A stretch of 64,000 bases of DNA from a bacterium (GTDB taxonomy: Bacteria > UBA8248), in assembly GCA_965213625.1 (NCBI GenBank), contig CBDBZU010000004.1, forward strand, positions 2,368,001 to 2,432,000, read 5' to 3'. This document shows positions 29,510 through 52,127 of this stretch, in pieces. The translations under genes and the position numbers were made by a program. The notes below the pieces were generated by a model. It ran no database searches and was not told where the DNA came from. It saw only the letters and a list, made by a program, of their open reading frames with translations. Numbering within the stretch: position 1 is the first letter of the stretch; each line of letters starts with the position of its first letter.

Positions 29510-29550
29510 TCCAAAGGCCGCGAATGCCGACCAAAGAGAGAGAAGATATT

Positions 29551-29960: not shown

Positions 29961-30012
29961 TTAAATGGGTGGGGCTTTCAAATGGCTGAATGGCCGGTGA
30001 TGCCTGCCGGTA

Positions 30013-31107: not shown

Positions 31108-31135
31108 TTGCGCTTCAGGCTCCTGTGGCGGGGAA

Positions 31136-31534
31136 TCACACGTGCAGCATCACCAGATCTTTTTCGAGCGTGACCTCATACGTTTCGATGGAGGGGTCTT
31201 CTTCCGCCTCGAGCGTGACCTCATAGGTTTTGACGCGCATTTTGTGGGGGTTGAAGACCGAGCGCCCGTTCGTGATGTCGAACTCCCAGCAATGCCAGGG
31301 ACACACGAGTACCTGCTCGTCCATCACGTAGTCATAGGTATGGGGCCTGGATGACTTCATGGTCCCCTTGACCTTGCCCAGGCAAAGCGGCGCGCCCTGG
31401 TGCGGGCAGGAGTTCCTGACCGCGTAGAGGGAATTCTTGATGTTGAACACGCCGATGGAGCGACCCTCGACCTCGACTATCTTCCGCTCACCGGGGGGCA
31501 AGTCCGATATTTTGCACACCATGTGTTTCGCCAT
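31136..31534 (-). CDS. Rieske [2Fe-2S] protein
   Basis: CPHQGAPL...CPWHCWEF; duplicated TYEVTLE at the C-terminus. Confidence 0.9.
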   Translation of the reverse strand: MAKHMVCKISDLPPGERKIVEVEGRSIGVFNIKNSLYAVRNSCPHQGAPLCLGKVKGTMKSSRPHTYDYVMDEQVLVCPWHCWEFDITNGRSVFNPHKMRVKTYEVTLEAEEDPSIETYEVTLEKDLVMLHV

Positions 31535-31551
31535 TCGCGATTCGCCCCGAC

Positions 31552-32379
31552 TTAGTTCCCGGCCGCTGCGGCCGCCGCTTTTTCTCTCAGCATCTCCTCG
31601 AGCTTCGGCATGGCCCGCACCGACGCATAGCGCGCATGCTGGCCGCTCTGTGTGGAAAGGTTGCGCTTCGAGCCTTTGGGGATATGGATGATGGAGCCGG
31701 GACCCGCTTGCTGGTGATCGTCGTCCACCTGTGCGTCGATGACTCCCTTGATGACGTAGACGAATTCCTCGTGCGCGTTCTCGGCTGTCTGGTCCTCATG
31801 GCCCTCGGGAATCTCACCGTAGCCGAACGCGAGGCGCTCGCCTTCGATCCATACGGTGTGGCGTCCCGAAGATGCGGGCGCGTCCAGGGAGGGGAGTATC
31901 GGGTAATAGGAGTTGTTCAGGCCTTCGACGATGATTTCCGATCGCTCGGCGTCTCTTTCGAATTCTTCCGCAGTGCCTTCCTCGTACCGCTGGTTGATTT
32001 CCTCAACGGTAAGCGCCTTGTCCGGCACAACCTGGTCTCTATCCAGGCCCACGACCGTCCAGGAGCGGTCCTTCACGTAGAGGTAGTCCATGTCGCCGTC
32101 TTCGGTGGCGCCCATCTGATGCTGCGCGTAAGGGGGAACGTGCACGAAAGTGCCCGGCGTGACGACTCTTCTGTCCTTACCGACGAGGGCGTTGATTTTA
32201 CCGCTGATGGGGAAAATCATGAGCTCGTTGGGGTGGTAGTGTATCTGCGAGCCCGTGCCGGCCACCTTGCTGACCTGGCAGAAATACATGTATTCCCCCT
32301 CGATGATGGAACCCTGGCCCGAGGAGAGATGGGGCGTAACGGCTTTTTTCTCTATTTCATCGAAACGATGGAACGGCAT
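31552..32379 (-). CDS. Bicupin protein
   Basis: HYHPNE...HVPPYAQH in domain 1; second, degenerate cupin (AHEEFVYVIKG...IIHIPKG). Confidence 0.8.
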   Translation of the reverse strand: MPFHRFDEIEKKAVTPHLSSGQGSIIEGEYMYFCQVSKVAGTGSQIHYHPNELMIFPISGKINALVGKDRRVVTPGTFVHVPPYAQHQMGATEDGDMDYLYVKDRSWTVVGLDRDQVVPDKALTVEEINQRYEEGTAEEFERDAERSEIIVEGLNNSYYPILPSLDAPASSGRHTVWIEGERLAFGYGEIPEGHEDQTAENAHEEFVYVIKGVIDAQVDDDHQQAGPGSIIHIPKGSKRNLSTQSGQHARYASVRAMPKLEEMLREKAAAAAAGN

Positions 32380-34712: not shown

Positions 34713-35147
34713 ATGCCTTTTTACGAACCCGAATCGATGGAGCAAAGACTGGCGGGGGCGAGCTACAGCACCTCCGAGGGCGTGTGGGTCGATGGCGAGC
34801 GCGTCATTTTCGGCATCATCAACAAGCCGGCGGGCACGGGCAGCAGGCCCCATCGCCATGCGAACGAGCAGTTCATTCTCGTTCAGCAGGGCAGCCTGCA
34901 GGCGATGATCGACGGCGAGCGGAAAACGGTCGGCGCAGGGGGCATCATTCACATACCGGCGAATTCGCTCCACAGCATGGTGGCCACCGATGATGAGGAC
35001 GTCATTTTCATCGTCGCGAAGGATACGGCATGGCAGATCGAGGGCGTCCCCGAGGATGATTCGACCTACGGGGCATATATCGGCGAGGGCGCTGATGATA
35101 GCGTGGCTGCGCGTTTTCACGAGATTTCCGAAAAAGGCTCCGAATAA
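34713..35147 (+). CDS. Cupin domain protein
   Basis: PHRHANEQ...HIPANSLH. Confidence 0.85.
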   Translation: MPFYEPESMEQRLAGASYSTSEGVWVDGERVIFGIINKPAGTGSRPHRHANEQFILVQQGSLQAMIDGERKTVGAGGIIHIPANSLHSMVATDDEDVIFIVAKDTAWQIEGVPEDDSTYGAYIGEGADDSVAARFHEISEKGSE

Positions 35148-35387
35148 GCGATAATCGGCGCGGGCTGACGAAAGCGCCGGGAGGCGAACAGTTCGCGCGC
35201 CATATCAAAAACGTGCAAATCTTTGGCGTAAGATTTTGACTTGGGAATCTATTTTTGCAAGAATGCCCGAAATTCGGACCGAAGCCGCAATGAACCATAT
35301 AGAACAGACGGGATAATTCCATGGCTCCGGCCATGAGCGCATTGTGAATGTAATGCTTTGAAATTCGCATGATTTGGGAGGCTGTTG

Positions 35388-36254
35388 ATGGCGACGGCGA
35401 GTGAAGTCAGAAGGGATGAAGTAAAACTACCTGACGAGTACACCAAGCAGGAAAGAGTCTGGATGTGGCTCAAGGACAACGTCCCGAGCTTCATCGCGGT
35501 GCTCGTCATATGGGAGTGCATCGCATTTTACGTGAGTGAGCCCGCGCTGTTCCCGCGCGTATTTCCCATTGTCCACCGATTTTACGAGGTCACCTTCCTG
35601 AAGTCCGGTGAGACCACGTGCGTCTTGTGCGTGCACTCCTACCATACCGCCTGGCGGATCATGATAGGAATGCTCATCGCCGGCTTCGTGGGGATTGCCA
35701 TCGGCATCGCTATGGGGCGCATCGGCTGGTTCGAGAAGTTCATGATCCCCATCCTGAGCATGCTCCTGCCCATACCGGCCCTGGCCTGGAGCCCGATTCT
35801 CGTCCTGTGGTTCGGTCTCGGCAACACGACGATGATCTTCATCACCGCGTTCGCCGCGGCGCTCCCGGCCATATCATCCACGTGGACGGGGGTGAAGACC
35901 ATTAACCCCATCTGGATACGCGCGGCGCAATCGATGAACGCCGAGGGGATGACCCTGTTCTGGAAGGTCATATTTCCCGGCTCGCTGCCGTTCATTCTCT
36001 CGGGCATCCGTATCGGCCTCGCGCGCGCATGGCGCGCCGGCATCGCAGGTGAGATGGTGGCCGCGAGCGACTGGGGTTTGGGTTACGCTATCTTCGACAG
36101 CCGCGAAGACCTCGACACCGCCTTCATGCTGGTGGGAATCGCGGCCATCGCCCTGGTCGGCTTCGTGATGGAGAAGTTCATATTCGAGAAATTCGAAAAA
36201 GTGACCGTCGTCAAGTGGGGCATGATGGAAGAGGTCGGCGGACAGCGCCAGTAA
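35388..36254 (+). CDS. ABC transporter permease (TauC/SsuC/NitT family)
   Basis: PIPALAWSP, WFGLG, RAAQSM, P.SLPFILSGIRIGLARAW, EM.A...GLG. Confidence 0.9.
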   Translation: MATASEVRRDEVKLPDEYTKQERVWMWLKDNVPSFIAVLVIWECIAFYVSEPALFPRVFPIVHRFYEVTFLKSGETTCVLCVHSYHTAWRIMIGMLIAGFVGIAIGIAMGRIGWFEKFMIPILSMLLPIPALAWSPILVLWFGLGNTTMIFITAFAAALPAISSTWTGVKTINPIWIRAAQSMNAEGMTLFWKVIFPGSLPFILSGIRIGLARAWRAGIAGEMVAASDWGLGYAIFDSREDLDTAFMLVGIAAIALVGFVMEKFIFEKFEKVTVVKWGMMEEVGGQRQ

Positions 36255-36276
36255 CGGATAATAACAGACAGGCCAT

Positions 36277-36312
36277 AAAAAAGGCCGGCTCCCTCGGGGG
36301 GCCGGCCTTTTT
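36277..36312. terminator. Bidirectional intrinsic terminator between convergent genes
   Basis: AAAAAAGGCCGGCTCC-CTCG-GGGGCCGGCCTTTTT. Confidence 0.85.
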
Positions 36313-36339
36313 GTTTGTATATCAGATGCAGAGGTGAAG

Positions 36340-37092
<753 letters not shown>

Positions 37093-37223
37093 GTTTTTCG
37101 GTCCTTATGAGATATCTGATAAAACGTGATTCCACATTTTGTTTTTCACGATGAACCCGAAAAATAACGCAGATGATCCGCCCCCGTCAATTCCGTCAGT
37201 CCTCGCGCTTCGTTTCGCAAAAA

Positions 37224-37982
37224 TCAGAAAAAAGCGGCGAGTCCCCCGAAGTTCATCACTACGAGGAGAGCGCCCATAATGAACAGAATGATCGTGACAA
37301 TCCGGAAGAACAGCTGATCCGTAAAAATGTTGTATATCTTCGTGCCCACGAAGAATCCGAGCAGCACGGGCGTCGTCAGGATGAGGATGAGCCACAGGGC
37401 CGTCTCGCCGATGTAGCCCGCCGCCGCGATGGAGGCGATGGCCGCGACCCGGAGCACCACCTGGCTCGCGCTCAGCACGAAGAGGTAGCGCTCTTTCGAG
37501 ATTTTCATCCCCGTTAAGTAGGAGGCGATGACGTGGGAGGGAATGTTGATGGTGCCCAGCATGAGTCCTGCGACTGCTCCCATGCCCAGCGAGCGTTTCA
37601 GGGAATCCTCGGGCGCGGGCTTTTCGTGCTGATACCATTGCCAGACGATCTGGCAGATCAAGAAAGCGCCCAGGATGAATTTCATCAGGCGCGGATCGGT
37701 ATTCAGTAGAATTGTCAGGCCGACGGCCAAGCCAACCAGGCTCATCGAGAAAAAGGGAACGAAGGGCCGCAAGCCCTCGTGAACGGCCGCGCGCGTTCGC
37801 CAGGCGTTCATGAGGCTCGTGCACAGGGTGGGGATGGAGATGACGGCGATGGCCGTCGGCACGTCCCAGAAAATGGCCACGGTGGGCGTCGTGAGAGTGG
37901 CGAAGCCGAACCCGCCCACCGCCTTGAGACCCGAGCCGACGAATGCGGCGCAAAAAACCAGAATATAGACCAGAGGACTCAA
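37224..37982 (-). CDS. Sulfite exporter TauE/SafE family membrane protein
   Basis: About eight hydrophobic segments, N-terminal GFGF motif, two-fold internal repeat. Confidence 0.75.
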   Translation of the reverse strand: MSPLVYILVFCAAFVGSGLKAVGGFGFATLTTPTVAIFWDVPTAIAVISIPTLCTSLMNAWRTRAAVHEGLRPFVPFFSMSLVGLAVGLTILLNTDPRLMKFILGAFLICQIVWQWYQHEKPAPEDSLKRSLGMGAVAGLMLGTINIPSHVIASYLTGMKISKERYLFVLSASQVVLRVAAIASIAAAGYIGETALWLILILTTPVLLGFFVGTKIYNIFTDQLFFRIVTIILFIMGALLVVMNFGGLAAFF

Positions 37983-38247
37983 ATTGACCCCGTCAAAAAA
38001 GAATGATTACGCCAGGCGAGATGAGGCTGAAAGCGACACTCGAAGACGTGAACGGCTCATTGCGAGAAATCCGCAAACATGACGCTGAACCTTGACGCCG
38101 CTGCGAATATATCGGCATTATAGCCGCCAATCTCGAGTACGGGAAATCTCACAGGCTTGTTTCATCATCATGTGTCGGATGCCCCTTCGACACCTGAAAG
38201 GGAGCCGTCAACCACGGCTTCGGCGCGCCGGATTTGAGGATTTTTGA

Positions 38248-39318
38248 ATGGATTTTTCCTTATTTTATATCCTGTATCGTCCCGAAGATATGACCGAGGC
38301 GCAGGTCCATGAGGATATGTTCGAAGAGAGCATTCTGGCGGACGAGTTGGGCTACTCTTGCGTCTGGTACGCAGAGCATCACTTCTCCTGCGTCGGGATG
38401 ATCCCCGACCCGCTGCTCATCTGCGCCGCCGTCGCGCAAAAGACGAAAAAAATACACGTGGGCACGGCCATTTCCATCATGTCGTTTCACGATCCCATTC
38501 GGCTGGCCGAGCAGGCCGCCATGGTGGATCTCCTGAGCGGCGGCAGGCTGGAACTGGGCATCGGGCGCGGCTCCCAGCCCAAGGAGTTCCAGGGATTCGG
38601 CGCAAGGCCCTCGGAAAGCCGAGAGCGCTTAAAAGAAGGGCTCCACATTCTCTCCCGCCTTCTCGAAGGGGAGAAGGTGACGTTCGAGGGCCGGCATCAT
38701 CAGTGCGCGGACGTGGAAATCTTCCCAAAGCCCCTGCAAAAGCCCAGGCCCCCCATCTGGCTGGCAGGAACGAGCCCCGAAACCTACACCTACGCTGGGG
38801 AAAACGGCTTCAAGGTGATGGCCTCGGCCGGCTTCACGGGCCCGGAAGTTTATAAGGAAAAGTTCGGGCTTTATGAGGGCGCTATCCGAAAATCGGGCGG
38901 CGACCCCTCCGGTATCGACAGGCCCCTGGTTCACCACATCCACGTCTGCGATGCGGAGGATGCGGAGGAATGCTTCGACCTCACGGTAGAAGGGGAGGGC
39001 GAGTACCTGCGCTACCGGGCGAAGATGAACGAGGTGGAAATGCCCGAAGATGAGGCGATGCACCTGAAGCGCAACTGGAGTTATGAACTGGACGTCGCCG
39101 AGATCGTCAGGGGCGGCGGCATCATCGCCGATCCGGGAGCCGTGGCGGAGGATATTTGCAGGCTGCGTGATGATTACGGGGTCAATCACGTCATCCTGGC
39201 GCCGTGGCGCGGGCCGGACCACGCCGCGGTGATGCGCTCGATCGAGAGTTTCGTGCGCGACGTCATGCCGCTTGTGAACGCCACCGCGCCCGTCGCTTCG
39301 AATGGAAACAACTCTTGA
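38248..39318 (+). CDS. Luciferase-like (LLM) flavin-dependent oxidoreductase
   Basis: WYAEHHFS, HDPIRLAEQ.A.VDLLSGGRLELGIGRG, PKPLQKPRPPIW. Confidence 0.9.
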   Translation: MDFSLFYILYRPEDMTEAQVHEDMFEESILADELGYSCVWYAEHHFSCVGMIPDPLLICAAVAQKTKKIHVGTAISIMSFHDPIRLAEQAAMVDLLSGGRLELGIGRGSQPKEFQGFGARPSESRERLKEGLHILSRLLEGEKVTFEGRHHQCADVEIFPKPLQKPRPPIWLAGTSPETYTYAGENGFKVMASAGFTGPEVYKEKFGLYEGAIRKSGGDPSGIDRPLVHHIHVCDAEDAEECFDLTVEGEGEYLRYRAKMNEVEMPEDEAMHLKRNWSYELDVAEIVRGGGIIADPGAVAEDICRLRDDYGVNHVILAPWRGPDHAAVMRSIESFVRDVMPLVNATAPVASNGNNS

Positions 39319-39366
39319 TGCCTTGATGTTTTCTTTTTTGTCTTAGATTTTGGGAGGCGCTTATTC

Positions 39367-40347
39367 GTGGGTATGAGCTTTAGTTTGCATTTGGTGCCGG
39401 ATGACATCCGGGTCGTGGCGGAGCGTTCGAAATACGCCGAGGACAACGGTTTCGAGCAGGTGTGGATTGCGGAGAGCCACCTCACCTGCCGGGATCACAA
39501 CATCGCGCTCGCTCTGGCGATCGAGAAAACCTCGCATGTGAAAATCGGCCCCGGCGTGACGAACCCGGTTCTCCATGACGACAGCGTCGCGGCGAGCGCC
39601 ATCGCCACACTCGATGAGCTATCGGGCGGCCGGGTGCTGTTCGGCATCGGCTCGGGCGACACGCCCGTCTATACACTGGGCAAGAAGATGGCCCGGCTCG
39701 CCCGGATGCGTGAATCCATCGCGGCCATACGCGCGTTTACGCGCGGCGAGACGGTGGAATACGCCGAGGGCGTGAACGTGAACATGTGGTGTGAGCGGGA
39801 TATCCCCATCTATACATCCGCCGAGGGCCCCAGGACGCTCTCCATGTCGGCCGAAGTCGCGGACGGCGTCATCGTGGGTTCGGGCGTCTACCAGGAGACG
39901 GTGGACTGGGTGATGAAGTACCTGAACGAGGGGATGGCGAATCGCGACGCCTCGCTGGGCGAGATGGACATTATTTTCGGCGCGGTCGTCTCGGTGGATA
40001 CCGACAGCGTGCGCGCGCGCGAGAAGGTGCGGGCGCGGGTTGCGAACCGGGCGCACCATAATTTCCGCATGACGCTCGACTCGGTGCCCGACCAATACAA
40101 GCCCGAAATCAAACACCTTCTGGACAATTTCGACGTGAGCAACTGGCGTGACCCAAAGCACGTGCCCCTCATCACCGACTACATCCTGGACCGTTTCACC
40201 ATCACGGGAACGCCCGAGGAGTGTGTCGACCGCATTCAGGAGATCGAGTCCTACGGGGTCAAGAGCATCATGATCGACCCCCCGAACCAGGATTTCGACG
40301 AATCTCTCAAAATGTTCACCGAAGAGGTTTTGCCCAAGTGCGTCTAA
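39367..40347 (+). CDS. LLM oxidoreductase, Mer-like (possibly F420-dependent)
   Basis: IGPGVTNP, ATLDELSGGR..FGIGSGD, GPRTL..SAEVADGV, GTPEEC. Confidence 0.85.
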   Translation: MGMSFSLHLVPDDIRVVAERSKYAEDNGFEQVWIAESHLTCRDHNIALALAIEKTSHVKIGPGVTNPVLHDDSVAASAIATLDELSGGRVLFGIGSGDTPVYTLGKKMARLARMRESIAAIRAFTRGETVEYAEGVNVNMWCERDIPIYTSAEGPRTLSMSAEVADGVIVGSGVYQETVDWVMKYLNEGMANRDASLGEMDIIFGAVVSVDTDSVRAREKVRARVANRAHHNFRMTLDSVPDQYKPEIKHLLDNFDVSNWRDPKHVPLITDYILDRFTITGTPEECVDRIQEIESYGVKSIMIDPPNQDFDESLKMFTEEVLPKCV

Positions 40348-40395
40348 TCGCATAGTGGACATAATCGACCGCCTTTTTCATAAGAGGAACCCAAA

Positions 40396-40794
40396 ATGGC
40401 GCTGATTCCCGATTCTCATGCCGGCATTCTCGACACAAAGGCCCTCCTGTATCTGGGCACCCAGAACAAGGACGGCTCCCCCCAGGTCTCTCCCGTATGG
40501 TTCGGCACCAACGGCGACATCATCGAGGTCAATTCGGCCAAAGGCCGCCTGAAGGACCTGAATATGCGCGCGCGCCCCAAGGTGTCGATGGCCATCGTCG
40601 ACCCCGAAAACGCCTACAGGTGGGTGGGGTTACAGGGCACGGTGGTGGAGATCACCGAAAACGGGGCGGAAGAGCACATCGACGCCCTGGCGAACAAGTA
40701 TCTGGGCGTGGACAGCTATCCGAACCGACAGGCGGGGCAGGTGCGCGTCATCTACCGCATCCGGGCGGACAAGGTGTTCACGATGGGCGCATAA
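40396..40794 (+). CDS. PPOX-class (split beta-barrel) probable F420-binding protein
   Basis: T.N.DGSPQVSPVW, GRLK..N.R.RP.VS...DPEN.YR, HIDALA.KYLG...YP. Confidence 0.85.
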   Translation: MALIPDSHAGILDTKALLYLGTQNKDGSPQVSPVWFGTNGDIIEVNSAKGRLKDLNMRARPKVSMAIVDPENAYRWVGLQGTVVEITENGAEEHIDALANKYLGVDSYPNRQAGQVRVIYRIRADKVFTMGA

Positions 40795-40839
40795 GCCGCC
40801 CTGCGCACACGATATTTGTAAGTGATGGAGACCGGAAAG

Positions 40840-41895
40840 ATGAAGTTTTCGCTATTCTATATTCCTGCATGTCAGGAGGGGGAGAGCTACAAACACGAGT
40901 TCGATCAGTTGATCGAACAATGCGAGGTGGCCGACGAACTCGGCTATGAGGCCGTGTTCCTGGCCGAGCACCACTTCTCCCGCGTGGGCATGTGCCCCGA
41001 CGCCCTGATGGTCGCGCTCGCCATCGCGCAGAGAACCAGGAAGATACGGATCGGCACCGCCATCTGCATCATGCCGTTCCATAACCCGGTGCGCCTGGCC
41101 GAACAGGCCGCCCTGGTCGACGTGCTGAGCGGCGGGCGTCTGGAGCTGGGCGTCGGGCGGGGTTCCCAGCCCAAGGAGTTTCAGGGCTTCAACATCTCGC
41201 CCAGTGAGAGCAGGGAGAAGATGCAGGAGGGCCTCGAGGTGATGACCCGCCTGCTGGAGGGGGAATGCCTCACCTTCCACGGGAAGCACTACAGCTGCAT
41301 CGACGCGGAGATTTTCCCGAAACCCATACAGAAGCCGCGCCCTCCCATCTGGCTGGCCGGCACGAGTCCCGAAACCTACGTCTTCGCCGGCAAGAGGGGG
41401 TACAACATCATGGCGTCGGGCACCTTTAAGGGACCCGAGGTGTTTCTGGAGAAGATGGCGCTCTTCCAGGAAACCGTGCGCAACCGGGGCGGCGACCCGA
41501 GTGTTTATCCCTCCCTCATGGCGCACCACGTCCACGTGTGCGACGACCCCGAGCACGCCTGGAAGCAAATCGAACCCTCGGAATCGTGGTATCTCTCCTA
41601 CCGCAGCGCGGTGAATTCCATCGAGATGCCGCTTGAGGAGAAAGAGGCGCTCAAGCGCAACTGGAGCTACGACGTCGACATCCGCCAGGTTATCGAGGGG
41701 GGCGGCGTCATCGGCCCGCCGGATAAAGTGATCGCCGATCTCAAGCGGCTCCAGGCGGAGTTCCAGGTGAATCACATCATGATCTTCGTGCTGCGCGGCA
41801 TCGCACAGGACGAGGCGATTCAGTCGATAGAGCGGTTTGCGAAAGAGGTGATGCCCGCGTTCGCCGAAGAGCGCGCGGCGAGTTCAAGCGAATAA
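40840..41895 (+). CDS. Luciferase-like (LLM) oxidoreductase, paralog of 38248-39318
   Basis: FLAEHHFS, HNPVRLAEQ, GRGSQPKEF, PKPIQKPRPPIW; start could be 40822. Confidence 0.9.
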   Translation: MKFSLFYIPACQEGESYKHEFDQLIEQCEVADELGYEAVFLAEHHFSRVGMCPDALMVALAIAQRTRKIRIGTAICIMPFHNPVRLAEQAALVDVLSGGRLELGVGRGSQPKEFQGFNISPSESREKMQEGLEVMTRLLEGECLTFHGKHYSCIDAEIFPKPIQKPRPPIWLAGTSPETYVFAGKRGYNIMASGTFKGPEVFLEKMALFQETVRNRGGDPSVYPSLMAHHVHVCDDPEHAWKQIEPSESWYLSYRSAVNSIEMPLEEKEALKRNWSYDVDIRQVIEGGGVIGPPDKVIADLKRLQAEFQVNHIMIFVLRGIAQDEAIQSIERFAKEVMPAFAEERAASSSE

Positions 41896-41919
41896 CATCG
41901 GTATCGAGGAGAACGGAGA

Positions 41920-42519
41920 ATGTGGATATCCCCATTAAGGCTGAATGACGCGCAAGAACCCGCACGCGGCATACTCGAGGGCATCCGGGCGAAACGGGGC
42001 GCCGTGCCCAAGCTGCTGCTCACGATGGCGCGGCGCCCTAAGGTGCTGAACGGACGCCAGACGATGAACATGGCCGTCCACGGCGGCAATTCGACGCTGG
42101 GCCAGAGGCGCGAGGAGTTGATATCCTACTATGTCGCCACCATCGGCGGTTGCTATGGCTGAACGATGAACCATGGCCAGGCTTTCCGTGCTGAAAGCGG
42201 CGACGACGTAACGCTGGCCGACGTGGCCACCGTGGTGATGGACAGGGACAATTCCCCGGTTCTCGACGATGCGGACAAGGCGATGCTCGCCTTCGCCGAA
42301 AAACTCACGTTCGACCACTACGCCATGAGCGAGGCGGACCTGGACGAGCTGCGCGAGGTGGGCTTCAGTGATGAGAACGTGCTGGACATCATAGGCTCCG
42401 TCTCGTACCGGAACATGAGCAACCGGCTGAATCTCGCGCTCGGCCTCGATGCCGTCGAACCAGAAGGCCCAGACGAGTTGATGGAGGTAGTGCGCTTCTC
42501 CCGGACTGCGCGGGCGTAA
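41920..42519 (+). CDS. AhpD/CMD-like peroxidase-related protein, probable selenoprotein (TGA 42160-42162 = Sec, codon 81 of 199)
   Basis: Two ORFs in the same frame joined by a single TGA giving RREELI...GGC-Y-G-U-TMNHG; C-terminal half has AMLAFAEKLT, LREVGFSDE.V.DI, NMSNR; SECIS-like hairpin follows. Confidence 0.85.
42175..42201 (+). promoter_or_regulatory. Candidate bacterial SECIS element
   Basis: GCC-AG-GCTTTC[CGTGCT]GAAAGC-GGC; loop starts 24 nt after UGA and has GU at loop positions 2-3. Confidence 0.7.
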
Positions 42520-42638
42520 AAACGTACATCCATTTGCCGGCCGAGCAAGTCCGGGCCGGTGATTATCAGGCAATTGATTGCCACCGTTGATTTGCGGCCC
42601 GAAGCGGCCGCGAAACAAAGCAGAAAGGAAGAGATTCC

Positions 42639-43409
42639 ATGTCAGAGCTCACCATCCGTCCGCTGAACTGCGGCACCATTCACACGGATTACTCCAATAT
42701 GGTGTATTGGACGAACTTCGGGACGAAACTCGAGATTCCCTCGTTCATCTACATGATCGAGGGGGCGAAGGACCACGACGGCAAGGACGTGAAGGTCGTG
42801 GTCGACACCAGTTTCCTGGACCCCGAGCGCGGCGGCGCCCCGTGGCCCGCGAGCCGGGAACCCGGCCAGGGCGTTCGCGAGCAGTTAGAGGGCGCGGGCT
42901 GGAAGCCCGAGGATGTGGACATCCTCATCCTCACGCACCTCCATTGGGACCATTCCCAGAACTGCGACCTGTTCACCAACGCCATCAAATACGTGTGGGC
43001 GGAGGAGCTTCAATACTCCATGTGCCCGGTCGCGCTGCAGTCGAAACCATACGACGCGCCGATCCACCCCAACACGCGCTGGCCGGTGATCGCGCAGCAG
43101 GGCATCATCTTCGAGCCGATCTGGAAGGATAATTTCGAGATCGTGCCGGGCGTCACCTACTTCCACACGCCAGGCCACACGCCGGGGCATTGCTCGGTGG
43201 CCGTCGAGACGCGCGTGGGAACGTACGTCATCGCCGCCGACGTGATCCAGATTAACGAAGGCCTCGAGCGCCGCGTTCCCGCCGGCCAGATGTCGAGCAT
43301 GCGCGACGCGATGGACTCCATCCATAAGTGCATCGAACGGGCCACGAAGGAGGAGTACATTCTGCCCGGCCATGAGATTTCGGTGCTGGAGAAGGAAGTC
43401 TACCCGTAG
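42639..43409 (+). CDS. Metallo-beta-lactamase fold hydrolase, N-acyl homoserine lactonase family
   Basis: VDT, THLHWDHS, TPGHTPGH, AAD, LPGHE. Confidence 0.88.
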   Translation: MSELTIRPLNCGTIHTDYSNMVYWTNFGTKLEIPSFIYMIEGAKDHDGKDVKVVVDTSFLDPERGGAPWPASREPGQGVREQLEGAGWKPEDVDILILTHLHWDHSQNCDLFTNAIKYVWAEELQYSMCPVALQSKPYDAPIHPNTRWPVIAQQGIIFEPIWKDNFEIVPGVTYFHTPGHTPGHCSVAVETRVGTYVIAADVIQINEGLERRVPAGQMSSMRDAMDSIHKCIERATKEEYILPGHEISVLEKEVYP

Positions 43410-43463
43410 GAAGGGAAAATCCGGGCGCGGCGGCTGCGCGCCTTTGTTCAGGGAGGATTCACG

Positions 43464-43841
43464 ATGGCGATGAGCGAGCGGGGCAGGGCCTTGTACGAGG
43501 AGATGAAGGCGGCGCGCGGGTTTATCTACCCGGCGTATGAACTCCTGTGCGAGGTGGACCCCGAGTTATTGGAGAACTACGAGAACCTCAAGAACCACAT
43601 CATGAAGAAACAGGGCCCCTTTCATGAGAAATACAAGGAGCTCTTCATCGCGGTGGCGAGCGCCTCGCGCAACCCCTCCGATTTAGAGAGCATTAAGAAC
43701 CACCTGAAAAAAGCGCTGCAACTCGGCGCGACCGTCGAGGAGGCGACGGAGGCCCTCGAGTGCATGCTGCCCCCCTGCGGCATGACGGCGCTCGTGGCGG
43801 GCTGCACGCAGCTCAAAGAGGTGATCGACGAGGGATATTAG
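43464..43841 (+). CDS. Carboxymuconolactone decarboxylase (CMD) family protein
   Basis: DPELLE.Y, KYKELF, H...AL.LGAT.EE..EALE; GGAGG SD. Confidence 0.8.
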   Translation: MAMSERGRALYEEMKAARGFIYPAYELLCEVDPELLENYENLKNHIMKKQGPFHEKYKELFIAVASASRNPSDLESIKNHLKKALQLGATVEEATEALECMLPPCGMTALVAGCTQLKEVIDEGY

Positions 43842-43862
43842 GGCAGGACTGGAAGCATTCGA

Positions 43863-43897
43863 CCGGGGGAGCCTGAAAACTCCCCCGGGTTTTTTGT
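43863..43897 (+). terminator. Rho-independent terminator closing the LLM operon
   Basis: CCGGGGGAG-CCTGAAAA-CTCCCCCGG followed by GTTTTTTGT. Confidence 0.85.
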
Positions 43898-43949
43898 TGT
43901 GTGAGGGATGCCTTGCGAGCATGGAGTGACAGCTCCTCCTCGGGGTTGT

Positions 43950-44412
43950 CCCACAGACCTGCGTGTCCGCCCTACAGGATCATTTATCTCATCGCCCCGT
44001 GATATGGCGAAGACAAAAATCGGGCGGACACGCAGGTCCGCCCCTACACCATCATTTAGGTTCAAGGGCCACAGGGACAGGTCGCGATCTTGGACAGGCA
44101 CAGGGGCCTGTCCCTGCCGGCTCTCCCTTTTGGGGCTGTTGAAAAGGCCCGGTAAGCGAATTTGGGTTGCGCGCATGCCCTTGAAGTTCACTCCCCCCTT
44201 GAGGGGGAGTCAGCGCGGCAAGGACAATGTCCGCCGCCGCGCTGGTGGGGGGTAAAACGCGTTTATTGCCATTTCGAATTATACCCCCCACCGAATCGCT
44301 TTCGGGCTTACGCCCTCAGCTCTTCGTCGGCTTTCCCCTCGGGAAGCCGACCCTCAAGGGGGGAGTGAATTTCCTATCTCATTGGATTGTAATGACTCTC
44401 AAGGGGGGAGTG
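43950..44412. repeat. Composite intergenic repeat cluster
   Basis: REP-like ...CCCTAC hairpins, GGGGCTGTTGAAAAGGCCC end, CACTCCCCCCTTGAGGGGGAGTC...CTCAAGGGGGGAGTG palindromic element (44189-44367). Confidence 0.8.
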
Positions 44413-44490
44413 ATAAAAGCCTGCGCCAGACAACATCACAACACTAACCTGTCTCTTGTATTTCCTCCGGGAGTTGCGTGGTTATCATAA

Positions 44491-44513
44491 AAGATGTATA
44501 TTATATATATAAT
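44491..44513 (+). promoter_or_regulatory. Candidate NsrR operator
   Basis: AAGATGTAT-N5-ATATAT in a strongly AT-rich patch just upstream of the Rrf2 gene; left half matches GATGYAT, right half is degenerate. Confidence 0.55.
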
Positions 44514-44531
44514 ATATGGGAGAAACACTCG

Positions 44532-44972
44532 ATGAGGCTGACCGTTCAGACAGACTACGCTCTCAGGATGCTGATGCACCTGGCCTGCCGCGCCGATGCG
44601 CTGGTGACGATCCACGAGATTGCCGAGCGGTACGCGATATCGAAAAACCATCTGATGAAGGTCGCGCACGGGCTGGGCCGCGCGGGGTTCATCGAAACGG
44701 TACGCGGCCGCAGCGGCGGACTCAGGCTCGCACGGCCGGCGGAGGAGATTCCCGTCGGAGCCGTGGCGAGACGAACGGAGCGCGCCAGCGTCCTCGTCGA
44801 ATGCTTTCCGGGCGGCAACGGGGGGTGCCTGATTACGCCGCACTGCCGGCTCAAGAGCGTTCTGGAAGAAGCGCAGGAAGCCTTTTTCCGTGTTCTCGAC
44901 CGCTATTCCGTCCACGACTTGGTGAAACGCAATCCCGCGCTGCTCGACTTGCTCGTTGGAGACGCCGCATGA
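44532..44972 (+). CDS. nsrR: Rrf2 family regulator, NsrR-like
   Basis: MRLT..TDYALR.L, IS.NHL.KV, RGRSGG, three Cys in ECFPGGNGGCLITPHCRL. Confidence 0.8.
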   Translation: MRLTVQTDYALRMLMHLACRADALVTIHEIAERYAISKNHLMKVAHGLGRAGFIETVRGRSGGLRLARPAEEIPVGAVARRTERASVLVECFPGGNGGCLITPHCRLKSVLEEAQEAFFRVLDRYSVHDLVKRNPALLDLLVGDAA

Positions 44973-45418
44973 ACACGAATCATCTCAAAATCGTGGGAGA
45001 ACGACGGGCCGGAATCCAGGCGAAAGCCGCCGCGATGGGGATCGATGAGGCGTACGTCTCCGAACTCGTGAATACCTTCTACAGCCGCATCCGGGAAGAC
45101 CGGCTCCTCGGGCCGATTTTCGATGAGGCCATTGGCGACAGATGGGGGCTTCATCTCGAGAAGATGAAGGATTTCTGGGCGACGGTGGCCTTGGGCGCCG
45201 GGCGCTACTCGGGAGAACCGATACCGGCCCACAAGAAACTCGTGGAAGTCCGGCCCCGGCATTTCGACGACTGGCTCGAACTGTTCGAGGAAACCCTGAA
45301 GGACACGGCGCCGACGCCGGAGGCTGTCGCCTATTTCATGGGGCACGCCAGGCAGATAGGGCGAGGGCTGCAGATCGCGATGTTCGGCGCATCAGGTCTC
45401 GGGAGGGCAGGCGCATGA
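44969..45418 (+). CDS. Group III truncated hemoglobin (trHbP)
   Basis: LV.TFY..IR.D.LLGPIF, W..HL.KM.DFW, Y.G.P...H, F..WL.LF; ATGA overlap with Rrf2. Confidence 0.88.
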   Translation: MNTNHLKIVGERRAGIQAKAAAMGIDEAYVSELVNTFYSRIREDRLLGPIFDEAIGDRWGLHLEKMKDFWATVALGAGRYSGEPIPAHKKLVEVRPRHFDDWLELFEETLKDTAPTPEAVAYFMGHARQIGRGLQIAMFGASGLGRAGA

Positions 45419-45708
45419 GCGAGAGCATTCCTGAAGGATTCGTCAAATACTACGAAAGCATAATCTTCACCGAGGCGACCGTACCCGAAAAACTTCTGAC
45501 CCTGCACGATACGAAACCGGGCGTCTGGGCGCGAATCGTGGTTCTCGAGGGCAGCCTCGACTATGTCATCCCGGGTGCGCCCGAGCGGAACCGCCGCCTG
45601 GATACCGGAGATGTCGGTATTATCCGGCCCACTGAGGCGCACCGCGTGGAACTCCTCGGAATGGTGCGGTTCCAGGTGGAGTTTTACCGGCCCGAGGAAG
45701 AGGGCTAG
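45415..45708 (+). CDS. DUF1971 (YeaR/TehB N-terminal-like) cupin protein
   Basis: FTE..VP..L...HDTKPGVW..I.V.EG.L.Y, P...HRV, FQVEFY. Confidence 0.8.
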   Translation: MSESIPEGFVKYYESIIFTEATVPEKLLTLHDTKPGVWARIVVLEGSLDYVIPGAPERNRRLDTGDVGIIRPTEAHRVELLGMVRFQVEFYRPEEEG

Positions 45709-45751: not shown

Positions 45752-46957
45752 TCACCCGTTGCAATGCGCCACTGTGGCGGTGGCGAACATGCCGGCGGCA
45801 TCGACGAGGTTCTGAGCGGGCACGCGCTCGTTCGGCAGATGGGCCTCCGAGATGAACTCGCCGGGGCCGAAGAAAACGCCCGGAACCCCGTTCTCGATGA
45901 AGAGCCTGAGCGCGCCCGGAGACTCGATACCGGGCAGGAATTCGTTCGGCGTCCCCCGCACGGCGGGGACGACTCGCTCCATGAGCTGCACGACGGGCTC
46001 ATCCTCGGCGATTTCCGTGACTTCGCGCGCGCCGCTCGGCATGATCTCCACCGACGCGTCGAATTCGGGGTCGTCCGCCGCGAGTTCTGCGAGAATACCC
46101 TCGAGCTTCTCCTTGACGCCCGCTGAGGTCTGTCCGGGCAGCATGCGCACGTCGAAGGTGGCGCTGCAGCGACCGCCCACGACGTTCACCGCGGAACCCC
46201 CGTTGATGGTGGAGAAAGCCAGCGTGCCCGGACCCAGGAAAGGATGCGGCGGAGGCGCGATGCGTTCTGCCTTGAAGGCGTCGATGATTTTCGCCATCTT
46301 CTCGATGGCGTTGACGCCCTTATCGGGCACGCTTACGTGGACGGAGCGGCCCTGCACCTTGACCTCGAAGAACACCCGCCCCTTGAAGGAGCGGATGATG
46401 TTGTTGCCCGTCGATTCGGTGTAGAGCACCATGTCGCCGCCCAGTTCCCTGAAAACGCCGTTGTTCACGAGTGATTGCGCGCCGTAGTAATCGCCCTTCT
46501 CGCCGTCCGATAGCAGGACCCAGGTGAGGGTGCCGTTTATGGTGATGTTCTCATCCTTGAGCGCTTTCAGCGCGCCGATGGTCGAGGCCAGCGCGCCCTT
46601 CATATCGGCGGCGCCGCGCCCCCAGATTTCGCCGTTTTTGAGTTCGCCGCTGAAGGGGGGAACCTCCCATGCGTCCACTTCTTCTGGGTGGACGGGCACG
46701 GTGTCCATGTGGCCGCCGATGACGAAGTGACCGCCCGGGCCGCCGTCTCCCGTGCGGATGATGAAGTTGGGCATCCCCGACTCGTATTCGTAGGTGGTGA
46801 TATCACCTGCGCCGATGGCTTTGAGCTCCGCGAGGATGCGCTCGGCCATGTCGGAGCAGTCGCCGGGCGGGTTTTCCGCGGGTATGCGAATCAAATCCTG
46901 CGCGAGACTGACGACGTAGTCCCCATCCACGGGAACGGGGGTGATGGCGTTACTCAT
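45752..46957 (-). CDS. M20 family (ArgE/DapE-like) amidohydrolase
   Basis: GHMDTVP, GRGAADMKG, DGEKG, FDVR.LPG, AHLPNE. Confidence 0.88.
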   Translation of the reverse strand: MSNAITPVPVDGDYVVSLAQDLIRIPAENPPGDCSDMAERILAELKAIGAGDITTYEYESGMPNFIIRTGDGGPGGHFVIGGHMDTVPVHPEEVDAWEVPPFSGELKNGEIWGRGAADMKGALASTIGALKALKDENITINGTLTWVLLSDGEKGDYYGAQSLVNNGVFRELGGDMVLYTESTGNNIIRSFKGRVFFEVKVQGRSVHVSVPDKGVNAIEKMAKIIDAFKAERIAPPPHPFLGPGTLAFSTINGGSAVNVVGGRCSATFDVRMLPGQTSAGVKEKLEGILAELAADDPEFDASVEIMPSGAREVTEIAEDEPVVQLMERVVPAVRGTPNEFLPGIESPGALRLFIENGVPGVFFGPGEFISEAHLPNERVPAQNLVDAAGMFATATVAHCNG

Positions 46958-47032
46958 GAAAAACTCCTTTCCAATCGAAAAATTCATTCACACAAAGCTC
47001 CGAGGGACGAGAATGTCCGCCCGGGTCGCAAT

Positions 47033-48217
47033 CTACAAATTGAGCGCCAGGCGGCTCACGGTGATTTCGGTTTCCTCCAGAATTTCCGCCCGCGTCGTTT
47101 TTCCGCTCAGAACGGCCGTCAACTCCTCGTGCAGGAGGCCCACGGCTTGATCCTTGGATATCTCGCCGCGCATGACGCCGCTGATGTCGAGATCGGTGTT
47201 CTCCGCCATGCGCGCCGCCGTCCGGGGATTGGCCGTCACCTTGATGGTGGGGGAGACGGGGTGCCCGATGGGGTTTCCATTGCCTGTGTTGAAGACGATG
47301 GCCTGCGACCCGCACGCGGCCAGCGCCGTGACGTTCTCGACCCCGGCGCTCGGCGCGTCGAGGAACACGCAGCCGCGCTCCTTCGTCAACTCGCCGGGAA
47401 CGATGACGTCGGCGATATCGCGCGTACCCGCTTTTTTCACCGCGCCCAGGCTTTTTTCTTCAATCGAGGAGAGACCGCCCTGAATGTTGTCCTCGGTCGG
47501 GTTGCAGCCGATGATGTCCATGCCCATCTCATGCGCGTAGTCCATCGTGCGCGCAACCGCTCCCAGGAGTTTTTTGCGCACCTTGGCGCTCGCCGCCCGC
47601 TTTGCGAGAAGGTGCTCCGCGCCGACGATCTCCATGGTCTCTGAAAATAGCACGACGCCGCCCGCGTCCACGATCCTGTCCGCCAGGACGCCGGTGACCG
47701 GGTTCGCCACAAGGCCGCTCGTGGTGTCCGAGCCGCCGCATTCAGTGCCCAGGGTGACCTCGGACAGATTGCACCTTTGCCGCCTCGCCGCGCTCAGGTG
47801 GCCGTACAGCTTCTGGGCGATCTCCACCCCCCGGCTCGCCGTCTGGAGCGTGCCGCCCGTCTCGTGGATGGTCAAGGTCTCGATAGGCATCCACGGCGAG
47901 GCTTCCGCCGCCACGTCGGCCAGGTCCTGTGCGCTCTTGGGCTCCAGGCTCACGACGATGGCCGCGCCCACGTTCGGGTGACCCGCCGTGCGGCCCATCA
48001 CCCGGTAGTGCTGCCTCTCGTCCTCGCCGAACAGGTTTCTGCCAAAGGTGGTGTTCACGACGACCGCCTCGCGCACGAGTTTCCCGATACGCCGCGCGAG
48101 GGGGTTGGCGTTGTCCATCGCGCTCACGATGACGAGGTGGTTCCGCGCACCGGGCGGCCCGCTCGGACGCCTGAAGCCCATGAAGGTGTTGCTCGGCTTT
48201 TTTCTCGGCAATCTCAT
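47033..48217 (-). CDS. UxaA/SuyB-family hydro-lyase large subunit
   Basis: GFRRP.G..GARN, HPNVGA, ECGGSD..SG..ANP, FSET.E..GAE, GGLSSIEEKSLG. Confidence 0.85.
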   Translation of the reverse strand: MRLPRKKPSNTFMGFRRPSGPPGARNHLVIVSAMDNANPLARRIGKLVREAVVVNTTFGRNLFGEDERQHYRVMGRTAGHPNVGAAIVVSLEPKSAQDLADVAAEASPWMPIETLTIHETGGTLQTASRGVEIAQKLYGHLSAARRQRCNLSEVTLGTECGGSDTTSGLVANPVTGVLADRIVDAGGVVLFSETMEIVGAEHLLAKRAASAKVRKKLLGAVARTMDYAHEMGMDIIGCNPTEDNIQGGLSSIEEKSLGAVKKAGTRDIADVIVPGELTKERGCVFLDAPSAGVENVTALAACGSQAIVFNTGNGNPIGHPVSPTIKVTANPRTAARMAENTDLDISGVMRGEISKDQAVGLLHEELTAVLSGKTTRAEILEETEITVSRLALNL

Positions 48218-48255
48218 TCTCCCGTATTGGTGTAAAAGCCTTGGAGCCGTGCTCT

Positions 48256-49095
48256 TTAATCGTCAAACGGCGCTGGGCGGTGGTGTACGTTCACCTCGCG
48301 CGTCTTGATGTATTCGATGACGCCGATGAGACGTTCCACCACGGCCTCGTGGAAGGCGCGCCCTTTCTCCGGGGTGGCTTGGGTCGGGTCGCCGGATTGT
48401 CCCTGATCGCCGATCTCGGCCCGGTATTCGCTCACCGTCTTGGGGTAGAAAAAGCGCGGCGCGTCCACCGCCGGGTCCGAAATATGGTGCCCCGTCATCC
48501 ACTCGGGGTTGGGGTTCGAGTTCTTAGGCTCAGCTTTTTCCATGTCGACCAGGTGGGGATACATGTGGAGCGCGTGCGAGGCTTCCAGCTCGCACGCGTG
48601 GCCCTGTCCGCCGGGGGGCGTGGTCCTGATATCCGCAATCCTGTCGAAGGCGATGATGCCGACGTCCACGATGGCGAGCGCCGCTCCCGTTTTCTGCCGC
48701 ATCTGGTTCACGGCGATCTCGAGCGGCGCCAGGTTGGCCCGCCTGTGTCCGTTCACCAGGATCACGCGGTTGAAGCCGTGGTAGAGGAGGCTGCTCATGA
48801 TATCGGTCACGACGGCTGTCAGGGTCTCGGGTCTCAGCGTAACCGTGCCCTTAAGCGCCATGTGGTTGTTGGTCCAGCCGTACCAGAGGGTGGGGTAGAC
48901 CAGAACGCCCGCCCGCTGCCCTGCGTCCTGCGCGACGTGGTGGGCGGCGAGCGCGTCGTGGCCCATGGGCATGTGCGGGCCGTGCTGCTCTATGCTACCC
49001 ACGGGCAGGATGACCAGATCGTTTCCCGAATCCAGGTAATCGCGCACCTCGCGCCAGCTTTTCTCATGCGCCCAGGGAGTTTCGGCGGTATCCAT
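48256..49095 (-). CDS. Creatininase / mycofactocin MftE-like family amidohydrolase
   Basis: LPVGSIEQHGPH.P...D, NGH..N, GHACELEAS, GDP..AT.EKG. Confidence 0.88.
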   Translation of the reverse strand: MDTAETPWAHEKSWREVRDYLDSGNDLVILPVGSIEQHGPHMPMGHDALAAHHVAQDAGQRAGVLVYPTLWYGWTNNHMALKGTVTLRPETLTAVVTDIMSSLLYHGFNRVILVNGHRRANLAPLEIAVNQMRQKTGAALAIVDVGIIAFDRIADIRTTPPGGQGHACELEASHALHMYPHLVDMEKAEPKNSNPNPEWMTGHHISDPAVDAPRFFYPKTVSEYRAEIGDQGQSGDPTQATPEKGRAFHEAVVERLIGVIEYIKTREVNVHHRPAPFDD

Positions 49096-49115
49096 GGCTT
49101 TTCTCCTCTCGTGTG

Positions 49116-49406
49116 GGGGTTATTGAAAAACCCCTCGTCGGGTTTCCCTGCAATACAGCCTTCCCGTCTCCCTCATCCTGAGTAGCGGCCCCTCGACTTC
49201 GCTCGGGACAAGCTCCGCCCCCACCTTCCTCATCCTGAGTAGCCGCCGAAGGTGGCGTATCGAAGGGTGCCTTCTCGCTTGTCACGAGGCGCCTCCCATC
49301 CTTCGATACGGCGCTTGCGCGCCTACTCAGGATGAGGCTTTGTTGCGGCGTGCGCCGCGTGCCCCGTCATATGTCCGATCTCGAAACCGGCTTTTTCAAC
49401 AACCCC
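49116..49406. mobile_element. MITE-like shell carrying TCATCCTGAGTAG palindromes
   Basis: GGGGTTATTGAAAAA...TTTTTCAACAACCCC termini; two CTCATCCTGAGTAGC copies and CTACTCAGGATGAG; no clear target duplication. Confidence 0.7.
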
Positions 49407-49417
49407 CTGGGGTTTCA

Positions 49418-49750
49418 CTAAAACAAAAGGCTCCGCAAGCCCGGAAACAGCATGAATACGCAAACGCCCGCGCCGAGGCCCGCGAGCAGGTTTTTTCCCG
49501 CAGCATAGAAGACGCCCACGCAGACCGCCAGCCCCGCGAGGCGGTCGATGAGGTGTGATTCCGCGAGGGCGCCGCCGGGCAGCAGGATGATCTTCATCAT
49601 CAGGCCGGTGGCGATGGCGTAGGCCACGCAGGTCACCCACTCGAAGATGGGGCTGTCGTCCTCAATCCGGCCCGCGATGAGGACGCCCATCCACCGCCAC
49701 GAATAGGTGCAGACGATGGCGATTCCCAATAAAATCGCGGCGTCAGGCAT
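49418..49750 (-). CDS. AzlD-like membrane protein
   Basis: Small and hydrophobic, TY.WR..G motif, overlaps the AzlC-like gene. Confidence 0.75.
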   Translation of the reverse strand: MPDAAILLGIAIVCTYSWRWMGVLIAGRIEDDSPIFEWVTCVAYAIATGLMMKIILLPGGALAESHLIDRLAGLAVCVGVFYAAGKNLLAGLGAGVCVFMLFPGLRSLLF

Positions 49751-52030: not shown

Positions 52031-52127
52031 AGTTCTCTTCTCTCTCGTGGATTGGCGATGCTGTTCGAAGAAGTCGTCAACATAAACGTATAATCCACAT
52101 TCGAATTGATAATTTCAGGAGATTTTC

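Follow-up and report, generated by a model that had tools for sequence, protein, structure and literature searches.

An operon with a four-gene core that includes a predicted AhpD-like selenoprotein, confined to one family of bacteria of the UBA8248 lineage

Related systems and the make-up of the operon

Operons of the two-component LuxA/SsuD type encode flavin mononucleotide (FMN)-dependent luciferase-like monooxygenases (LLMs), in which oxygenation is followed by cleavage of a ring or an ester, and the reductase is not necessarily co-encoded. In the Rut pyrimidine pathway the LLM RutA yields a peracid, which is reduced and hydrolysed by the enzymes acting after it. The beta-ketoadipate pathway pairs a gamma-carboxymuconolactone decarboxylase (PcaC) with an enol-lactone hydrolase. 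Here we describe an operon that shares parts with each of these systems: seven open reading frames (ORFs), all on the + strand, at 38248-43841 of a 64,000-nucleotide stretch of bacterial DNA (GenBank assembly GCA_965213625.1, contig CBDBZU010000004.1, positions 2,368,001 to 2,432,000; GTDB lineage Bacteria, UBA8248), which we call the window. In operon order the genes encode two luciferase-like enzymes (LLM1 and LLM2), a split-barrel protein of the PPOX type, a third luciferase-like enzyme (LLM3), an AhpD-like protein whose in-frame TGA is predicted to encode selenocysteine (Sec-AhpD), a hydrolase of the metallo-beta-lactamase fold (MBL) and a small protein of the carboxymuconolactone decarboxylase family (CMD). 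LLM3, Sec-AhpD, MBL and CMD make up what we term the core.

The operon follows the logic of the Rut pathway, with an LLM oxygenase, an enzyme for a peroxy intermediate and hydrolases, but none of the Rut partners (isochorismatase, RidA, alpha/beta hydrolase, nitroreductase, RutF) is encoded in it. With the LuxA/SsuD-type operons it has in common the TIM-barrel LLM, the AEHHF motif and a reductase encoded elsewhere, but none of the operons of this type found in the literature carries the partner set of Sec-AhpD, MBL, CMD and an F420-type PPOX protein. As in the beta-ketoadipate pathway, a CMD-family gene adjoins that of a lactone hydrolase, although the hydrolase here is of the MBL and not the alpha/beta fold, and the CMD protein matches only a 'putative' decarboxylase structure. 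The neighbourhood marked by TIGR04027 and TIGR04030, which we take to comprise an LLM, an AhpD-domain and a CMD-domain protein, brings together the same three folds, but the scores obtained here lie far under the cut-offs (110-114 of 413 and 54 of 233). The type II Baeyer-Villiger diketocamphane monooxygenases, which belong with the LuxA/SsuD-type systems, appear as 'ketolactonases' in PMC6352141; the match between 3,6-diketocamphane monooxygenase and LLM3 is limited to residues 7-120 (E 1e-8).

The selenoprotein family has itself been described, as 'AhpD-like 1, COG2128, CxxU' with 299 members in ocean metagenomes (in passages of PMC2398784) and as 'AhpD-like protein, TIGR01926, CxxU' in a table of a 2026 review (PMC13188914). 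Sec-AhpD agrees with it in a profile score over cut-off, a CxxU at the redox centre and marine occurrence, whereas its fixed place in an operon with LLM, lactonase-type and CMD genes has no counterpart in the relevant passages of the published descriptions. The preliminary description of this locus, which was made from the sequence alone, had presented the operon as a candidate for an undescribed one, and this stands for the gene combination, for which full-text literature searches (main texts, not supplements) returned no characterised pathway, but not for the selenoprotein family. The operon does not represent a novel type of system, with all of its parts drawn from known superfamilies and the cluster limited to a single bacterial family.

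The seven ORFs are separated by gaps of 48, 48, 27, 24, 119 and 54 nt, in operon order, in agreement with the co-oriented, closely spaced genes first reported here, and Pfam and NCBIfam profile scores upheld the family assignment of each of them. The clean terminator described for the operon end was also found, as an intrinsic terminator at 43863-43897 (+ strand) whose stem (43863-43888) has nine pairs, eight of them G-C, and is followed by the T run GTTTTTTGTT. Upstream, the operon diverges, as had been noted, from a TauE-type gene (37224-37982) and an ATPase gene (36340-37092), both on the - strand. A motif scan placed a sigma-70-like promoter 5' of LLM1 at 38092-38121 on the + strand (TTGACG, 18-nt spacer, CATTAT), and both hexamers are invariant in five of five aligned genomes of the genus while the flanking intergenic sequence varies; the number of such sites across the region, three observed against 2.9 expected, is not above chance. 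GC content at third codon positions (GC3) is 0.77-0.87 in the seven genes and similar in the neighbouring ones, and no break in base composition was detected across the operon. An Rfam scan of 35000-45500 returned no riboswitch or leader, its three matches all lying at the terminator at 36.2 kb and far under the gathering score.

Conservation of the four-gene core

We compared the locus with 51 species-level genomes of the phylum, representing 15 genera. The core is present in three of the genera: g1, to which the window belongs, g22 and g20. Orthologues of LLM3 occur in all 22 other g1 genomes at 84-97% identity, in g22 at 66% and in the g20 genome G048 at 69%. Orthologues of MBL with at least 80% identity are likewise found in 3 of the 15 genera (21 of 22 genomes in g1, 4 of 4 in g22 and 2 of 2 in g20), the single g1 genome lacking one being only 79% complete, and in none of the five genomes of g2. 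The CMD orthologues lie in the same genomes and, in all three genera, always immediately 3' of MBL.

The other three genes are distributed differently. All eight g1 loci that were fetched contain LLM2, PPOX, LLM3, AhpD, MBL and CMD; LLM1 is missing from four of them (G001, G007, G009, G019). Of the 22 other g1 genomes, 17 have LLM1 ~2.5 kb upstream of LLM3 and four lack it, G021 giving no clear placement. LLM2 was found in the cluster in g1 only. The four g22 genomes, of ~2 Mb, and a metagenome contig (L122) carry PPOX, LLM3, AhpD, MBL and CMD without LLM1 or LLM2. The PPOX gene adjoins LLM3 or an LLM1-type gene in g1, g22 and g2, and joins the core in two genera. The genes are syntenic across genera, but the seven do not form one conserved unit. 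The unit that is held together by selection is the four-gene core, and LLM1, LLM2 and PPOX are accretions to it.

In G048 the core stands by itself. LLM3, AhpD, MBL and CMD are adjacent there, and the 20-kb locus holds no match to PPOX, TauE or the TauBC-like genes; the core is ~6 kb from genes for AstE and an M20 protein and is flanked by an Opp-type ABC system and, at its other end, by fumarase and aconitase genes. Since the four genes are still adjacent in this different neighbourhood, they move as a unit, and the relocated core is the best evidence of functional coupling among them. In our reading this is a real operon whose assembly through gains and losses of genes is still under way, restricted to a single family of uncultured marine and sponge-associated bacteria.

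Contigs assembled from RNA libraries, from runs labelled sponge metagenome, cover 39691-41723 and 41705-43799 (X21) and 40115-40897 (X22) of the window. All junctions between LLM2 and CMD are spanned by these contigs, which stop just short of the terminator. At ~91.5% identity to the window, they derive from a related species. A second RNA study gave short pieces only. The contigs are compatible with co-transcription, weak evidence that leaves a single transcript unproven, as carry-over of DNA is possible; the uncovered parts at 37886-38166 and 39291-39571 have no evidential value, and contig depth cannot rank the genes.

Paralogues of the core genes have other surroundings. LLM3, MBL or CMD orthologues were found at none of ten loci of AhpD paralogues, and three of six loci of CMD paralogues have nothing but an LLM match of 24-29% nearby. 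Distant plasmid genes annotated 'peroxidase-related enzyme' gave no further instance of the cluster: in three contexts, one next to an amino-acid ABC system, one next to a hydantoinase and one following hsaACDB, they have no LLM, MBL or CMD neighbour. We also observed, on contig C3 of genome G014 (27372-32122), a second, partial copy with LLM1, LLM3, AhpD and half of MBL, which reflects either duplication or assembly redundancy.

Enzymes of the operon and their cofactors

LLM3 (40822-41895, 357 aa, PF00296 214 bits) and LLM1 (38248-39318, 356 aa, PF00296 199 bits) are LuxA-like monooxygenase paralogues, 53% identical to each other, that have in common the AEHHF motif and a luciferase-alpha-like start. 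Both match the LuxA model NF052254 over their entire length (110.9 bits for LLM3) and have their best structural matches among FMN-type LLMs (for LLM3, 7bip in the PDB with 125 bits, compared with 63 bits for the best F420 enzyme); the code 7bip appears in a paper on rishirilide biosynthesis. TIGR04020, the FMN-type MupA/Atu3671 family, is the best NCBIfam match of LLM1 (146.2 bits) and gives 164.5 bits with LLM3, both under its cut-off of 244.45. The two proteins meet only the superfamily model PF00296 and reach no NCBIfam subfamily cut-off, and the F420 family TIGR03619 (126 of 167 bits) and the FMN family TIGR04020 (164 of 244) come similarly near to theirs. For these reasons we regard the use of FMN by LLM1 and LLM3, as predicted from their sequences, as likely and not more than that.

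LLM2 (39367-40347, 326 aa, Bac_luciferase 173 bits) is of a different type. Eleven of its top 12 NCBIfam matches are families that NCBIfam names F420-dependent, the remaining one being the Mer model NF002619, and it aligns over its full length with the Mer structure 8qq8 (E 4e-40). Despite this alignment, LLM2 reaches neither Mer cut-off (204.9 of 276 bits on NF002619 and 177.5 of 348.7 on TIGR03555), and Mch (PF02289), a marker of the tetrahydromethanopterin (H4MPT) pathway, was not found in the 96.6%-complete genome, while the controls matched in three archaea; LLM2 is therefore not a methylene-H4MPT reductase. It is a Mer-like, probably F420-dependent enzyme with a substrate other than that of Mer. 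The earlier assignment of all three LLMs to a flavin or F420 type thus resolves into a mixed set, with LLM1 and LLM3 LuxA-like (FMN) and only LLM2 Mer-like (F420).

The genome contains ~43 LLM paralogues, as first-look candidates. Expansions of this kind have come up in discussions of marine organisms that degrade recalcitrant organic matter, and to our knowledge almost none of the paralogues in them has a known substrate.

The PPOX protein (40396-40794, + strand, 132 aa) is a split-barrel protein of the FDOR-B type, matching PNPOx_N with 47.9 bits. It scores over the cut-off of the F420-dependent class TIGR03618 (98.3 against 79.05 bits) and matches PDB 3f7e, which is MSMEG_3380-like, with an E value of 1.6e-15, so that it belongs to the F420-type class and is predicted to bind F420. 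F420 biosynthesis genes, for which a genome check had been proposed, were found: CofD (314 bits), CofE (281 bits) and CofH (392 bits) are all over cut-off and clustered at C4:1649281-1654985, and the genome likely makes F420. A search of the genome for an NADPH-dependent F420 reductase (TIGR01915) gave none, the best match having 20 bits, and F420-dependent glucose-6-phosphate dehydrogenase (FGD, TIGR03554) gave no match at 1e-30, an uninformative result as the control likewise matched no genome.

That the operon encodes no flavin reductase was upheld; five reductase genes, four of PF01613 and one of PF03358, lie elsewhere in the genome. One PF01613 gene is located ~2 kb from another AhpD-like gene with an in-frame TGA, whose product is 28% identical to the window copy (G000:C4:2709250-2712121). 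The main text of a review on F420 (PMC8498797), in the portion available, contains none of the terms 'flavin reductase', 'FMN reductase' and 'Baeyer'.

The frame of Sec-AhpD (41920-42519, + strand) comprises 199 residues in two parts, 41920-42162 and 42166-42519, the first ending with the TGA at 42160-42162. Read through this codon, the protein scores 111.3 bits on TIGR01926, over the cut-off of 81.8, its C-x-x-U aligns with the CxxC of the AhpD structure 6k40, and it displays the signature E66-X11-C78-Y-G-U81-X3-H85; we take E-X11-C-x-x-U-x3-H to be the proton-relay and redox signature of AhpD, as in the mycobacterial enzyme. In the search of the phylum, exactly one in-frame TGA is listed for each of the 27 orthologues with at least 60% identity, and the context C-Y-G-TGA recurs in all 13 orthologous loci inspected, some of which are the same genome fetched twice. 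The protein sequence flanking the conserved TGA is 60-97% identical, and the nucleotides 3' of it are far more conserved than those 5'. Among 17 matches in a word-index search of a protein collection, 14 are C-terminal pieces of 109-154 aa, in keeping with the way ORF callers split genes of this kind. The genome also has selenocysteine machinery, with SelB (388 bits) and SelA (564 bits) over cut-off and adjoining, and ARAGORN found a tRNA-SeC(tca). The reading of this gene as a selenoprotein gene, proposed in the preliminary description, is borne out by the conserved C-Y-G-TGA, the TIGR01926 score and the presence of SelA, SelB and tRNA-Sec, and we predict the UGA at 42160-42162 to be a selenocysteine codon.

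A candidate selenocysteine insertion sequence (SECIS) hairpin at 42172-42190 (+ strand), formed by CAYGG, a 9-nt loop and CCGUG, begins 10 nt past the UGA. All 12 of the orthologues and paralogues compared preserve its consensus fold of five base pairs, without any double compensatory change, and the fold of the single sequence (z -0.51) is no better than that of shuffles.

The phylum holds further AhpD-like proteins of this kind. Nearly all homologues in the 51 genomes, down to 25% identity, have an in-frame TGA and only a handful have none, which suggests a systematic use of selenocysteine in the AhpD-like proteins of this phylum. One paralogue has TGA at both redox positions (G-G-U-Y-G-U, hence UxxU; G000:C4:604733-605299, + strand, in locus L206 at 9731-10303). 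It is of the TIGR01926 type, 44-51% identical to the window copy, and is also present in L205 (G024) and L207 (G023); the phylum search lists 24 AhpD-like entries with two TGAs, across genera g1, g2 and g3. It may be a diselenide variant of AhpD. The tables of the review, in the portion available, give the AhpD-like family only as CxxU with one selenocysteine, and UxxU only for other families.

The MBL hydrolase (42639-43409, + strand, 256 aa) is of the lactonase type and scores 61.6 bits on PF00753 (Lactamase_B), against a cut-off of 22.7. Like the lactonases AiiA, AttM and 4-pyridoxolactonase it has the MBL fold, a metal site of the HxHxDH type and a similar length, and it matches the AiiA structure 4j5f with an E value of 3e-16, but it forms a separate clade and reaches none of their cut-offs (77.6 of 375 bits for AiiA, 74.3 of 390 for AttM, 71.8 of 325 for 4-pyridoxolactonase). 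The metal site (L101-H102-W103-D104-H105, D201, H245) is invariant in 16 sequences. Relatives with 78-82% identity came solely from the sister genera g20 and g22 and from metagenome proteins; the next are at most 47% identical. The CMD protein (43464-43841, + strand, 125 aa, PF02627 36.8 bits) has no CxxC motif and matches PDB 2q0t, a putative gamma-carboxymuconolactone decarboxylase subunit, with an E value of 1.6e-17.

Possible functions and the surrounding genes

The reading that we tentatively favour, at somewhat less than an even chance, is that of an oxygenative catabolic module for the processing of a ring or lactone, built around the four-gene core. LLM3, with LLM1 where present, would draw on reduced FMN and O2 for the oxygenation of a substrate that is small and probably cyclic, in a Baeyer-Villiger-type or hydroxylating reaction by way of a flavin C4a-peroxide. 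The MBL hydrolase would open the resulting lactone or ester, the CMD protein would decarboxylate or isomerise the product, and Sec-AhpD would clear H2O2 or an organic (hydro)peroxide arising from the oxygenase. PPOX and LLM2, as F420-type additions made later, may serve reductive side steps or cofactor recycling, and the reduced FMN might be supplied by one of the five reductases from other parts of the genome or, on a speculative view, by PPOX. A catabolism of small compounds fits the setting, as catabolic genes fill the window: three amidases, an amidohydrolase, a creatininase, a creatinase-type M24 peptidase, a Rieske protein and cupins, together with an enolase-superfamily protein of the MR_MLE (mandelate racemase/muconate-lactonizing) type. 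Of the oxidative pathway first proposed for the locus, the architecture, the selenoprotein and the capacity for F420 are retained; the seven-gene unit is not, and the link to organosulfur compounds is weak. As a compact and conserved unit with a selenoprotein, the four genes lend themselves to expression and to screens for substrates, and they provide a first functional context for an abundant, uncharacterised family of AhpD-like selenoproteins.

Several findings weigh against this reading, beyond the LLM1 and LLM3 scores given above. The CMD protein matched no NCBIfam family. The parts of the cluster can exist apart: the g20 genome G047 keeps only a C-terminal remnant of AhpD with MBL and CMD, and in the g2 genome G023 the site between fragments of AstE and M20 holds PPOX and an LLM1-type gene but no other member of the cluster. 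Synteny between g1 and g22 extends over the entire AstE-to-M20 block, flanks and operon alike, so that it is weak evidence and shared ancestry explains much of it. Finally, the clustering is known only within one bacterial family. The MBL search listed 80 genome loci, 76 of them outside the genus; none of these 76 distant loci has two or more partner genes, and three have one weak LLM match. Among 80 metagenome MBL loci listed, only L122 carries the cluster, and of the 79 distant ones 77 have no partner genes and two have a CMD-like neighbour.

A bolder version of the module, to which we give only a slim chance, would make it a selenium-dependent oxygenase system in which LLM3, as RutA does, forms an organic peroxide or peracid, Sec-AhpD is the dedicated reductase of that intermediate, MBL and CMD complete the ring opening, and PPOX acts as an F420H2:FMN oxidoreductase. 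If true, F420, FMN and selenium would be joined in one pathway for a cyclic compound derived from the host or from seawater.

Among the alternatives to a catabolic module, a detoxification system for redox stress and electrophiles survives best and is still unlikely. Sec-AhpD, CMD and a glyoxalase-II-like MBL would here act on peroxides and reactive carbonyls, with the LLM and F420 enzymes as reductases, in an oxygen-exposed, host-associated niche. In actinobacteria, F420 enzymes have been connected with defence against stress. AhpD-like proteins, for their part, are related to peroxidases (TIGR01926; PDB 6k40), some MBL homologues are annotated 'glyoxylase-like metal-dependent hydrolase', and the in-frame TGA in nearly all AhpD-like homologues of the phylum suggests a heavy investment in selenocysteine-based redox chemistry; however, the best families of MBL are lactonases and not glyoxalase II, the LuxA-like motif of LLM3 indicates an oxygenase, and the operon lies among catabolic genes with no stress-response regulator nearby.

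The organosulfur pathway suggested in the preliminary description is rather less probable. It would have the LLMs as desulfonating monooxygenases akin to SsuD or SfnG, served by a TauBC-like importer and a TauE sulfite exporter. The TauE/SafE-family membrane protein (37224-37982, - strand, PF01925 75.5 bits) indeed lies next to the operon, divergently oriented, in g1 and g22, but its membership in the system is doubtful: it matched no NCBIfam family, and neither a TauE match nor a TauBC-like ABC system is present in the 20-kb locus around the G048 core, and in g1 and g22 these genes sit in a block that is syntenic throughout. The ABC ATPase (36340-37092, - strand, NitT/TauT type, ABC_tran 114.5 bits) is a neighbour that is probably unrelated to the operon. 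TauB and TauC are among the two best NCBIfam matches of this ATPase and of its partner permease (35385-36254, + strand), yet both genes remain under every NCBIfam cut-off: the ATPase scores 253.4 bits on SaoA (cut-off 360) and 244 on TauB, and the permease 137.6 bits on SaoP (cut-off 295) and almost the same on TauC, so that the pair does not pass for a selenocysteine-assisted organometallic (SAO) system either. A third LLM paralogue, 60% identical to LLM1, adjoins a similar ABC system elsewhere in the genome (L039), which would suit an organosulfur role. LLM1 and LLM3 themselves score far under the relevant cut-offs, with 67-82 bits on alkanesulfonate monooxygenase models (cut-offs 510-518; on TIGR03565, 81.2 of 518 for LLM3 and 66.6 for LLM1) and 51-53 bits on SfnG (TIGR04021, cut-off 383; 51 for LLM3 and 53.3 for LLM1). 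No gene for a substrate-binding protein is found among the scanned ORFs of the window, no ABC orthologue lies beside the cluster in the G048 locus, and the orientation of the ATPase is inverted between genera.

That the genes have no common function, being unrelated and co-transcribed genes kept by descent in a slowly rearranging region, we consider very unlikely. It would account for the variation of gene content between genera, for flanks in g1 and g22 that match the operon in synteny and for the lack of a cluster outside the family among the loci listed, but not for the joint relocation of the four core genes in G048 or for the tight gaps of 24-119 nt and the shared promoter and terminator. 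Least probable of all is a module for quenching quorum or other lactone signals, with MBL as an acyl-homoserine-lactone lactonase and the LLMs and CMD modifying the acyl chain or ring: AiiA and AttM are the best named relatives of MBL, many of its homologues are annotated N-acyl homoserine lactone hydrolase and relatives occur in RNA libraries labelled sponge metagenome, but MBL scores about one fifth of the equivalog cut-offs and does as well on 4-pyridoxolactonase, and the other operon genes give no hint of acyl-homoserine-lactone chemistry.

Some features of the surroundings deserve mention in their own right. Genes for the catabolism of amides and N-compounds flank the operon densely (16546-29509 and 45752-53429), encoding three amidases, an Amidohydro_2 protein, a creatininase, a creatinase-type M24 peptidase, an M20 deacylase, an AstE-like deacylase, a protein with a double RidA domain and a molybdopterin oxidoreductase. 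Upstream, the permease and ATPase genes converge across a bidirectional terminator (36278-36312) with a 16-bp stem; this inverted arrangement is that of g1, and in g22 (L202, 4823-6526) the two genes are co-oriented and adjacent. Downstream, the C-terminal half of a 300-aa ORF at 44516-45418 gives a weak match to a bacterial-globin domain (24 bits), and the GC3 of this ORF is low, at 0.60. Of 12 loci of the genus only L035 (G002) and L044 contain the ORF, which is possibly not a genuine gene. Just 3' of the operon terminator, at 44120-44420, lies a dispersed intergenic repeat of ~80-220 bp, with another copy near 51826-52030 and 131 blastn matches in the genome, itself included, at 73-94% identity, and it is this repeat that explains the high depth of RNA-library contigs at 44120-44420.

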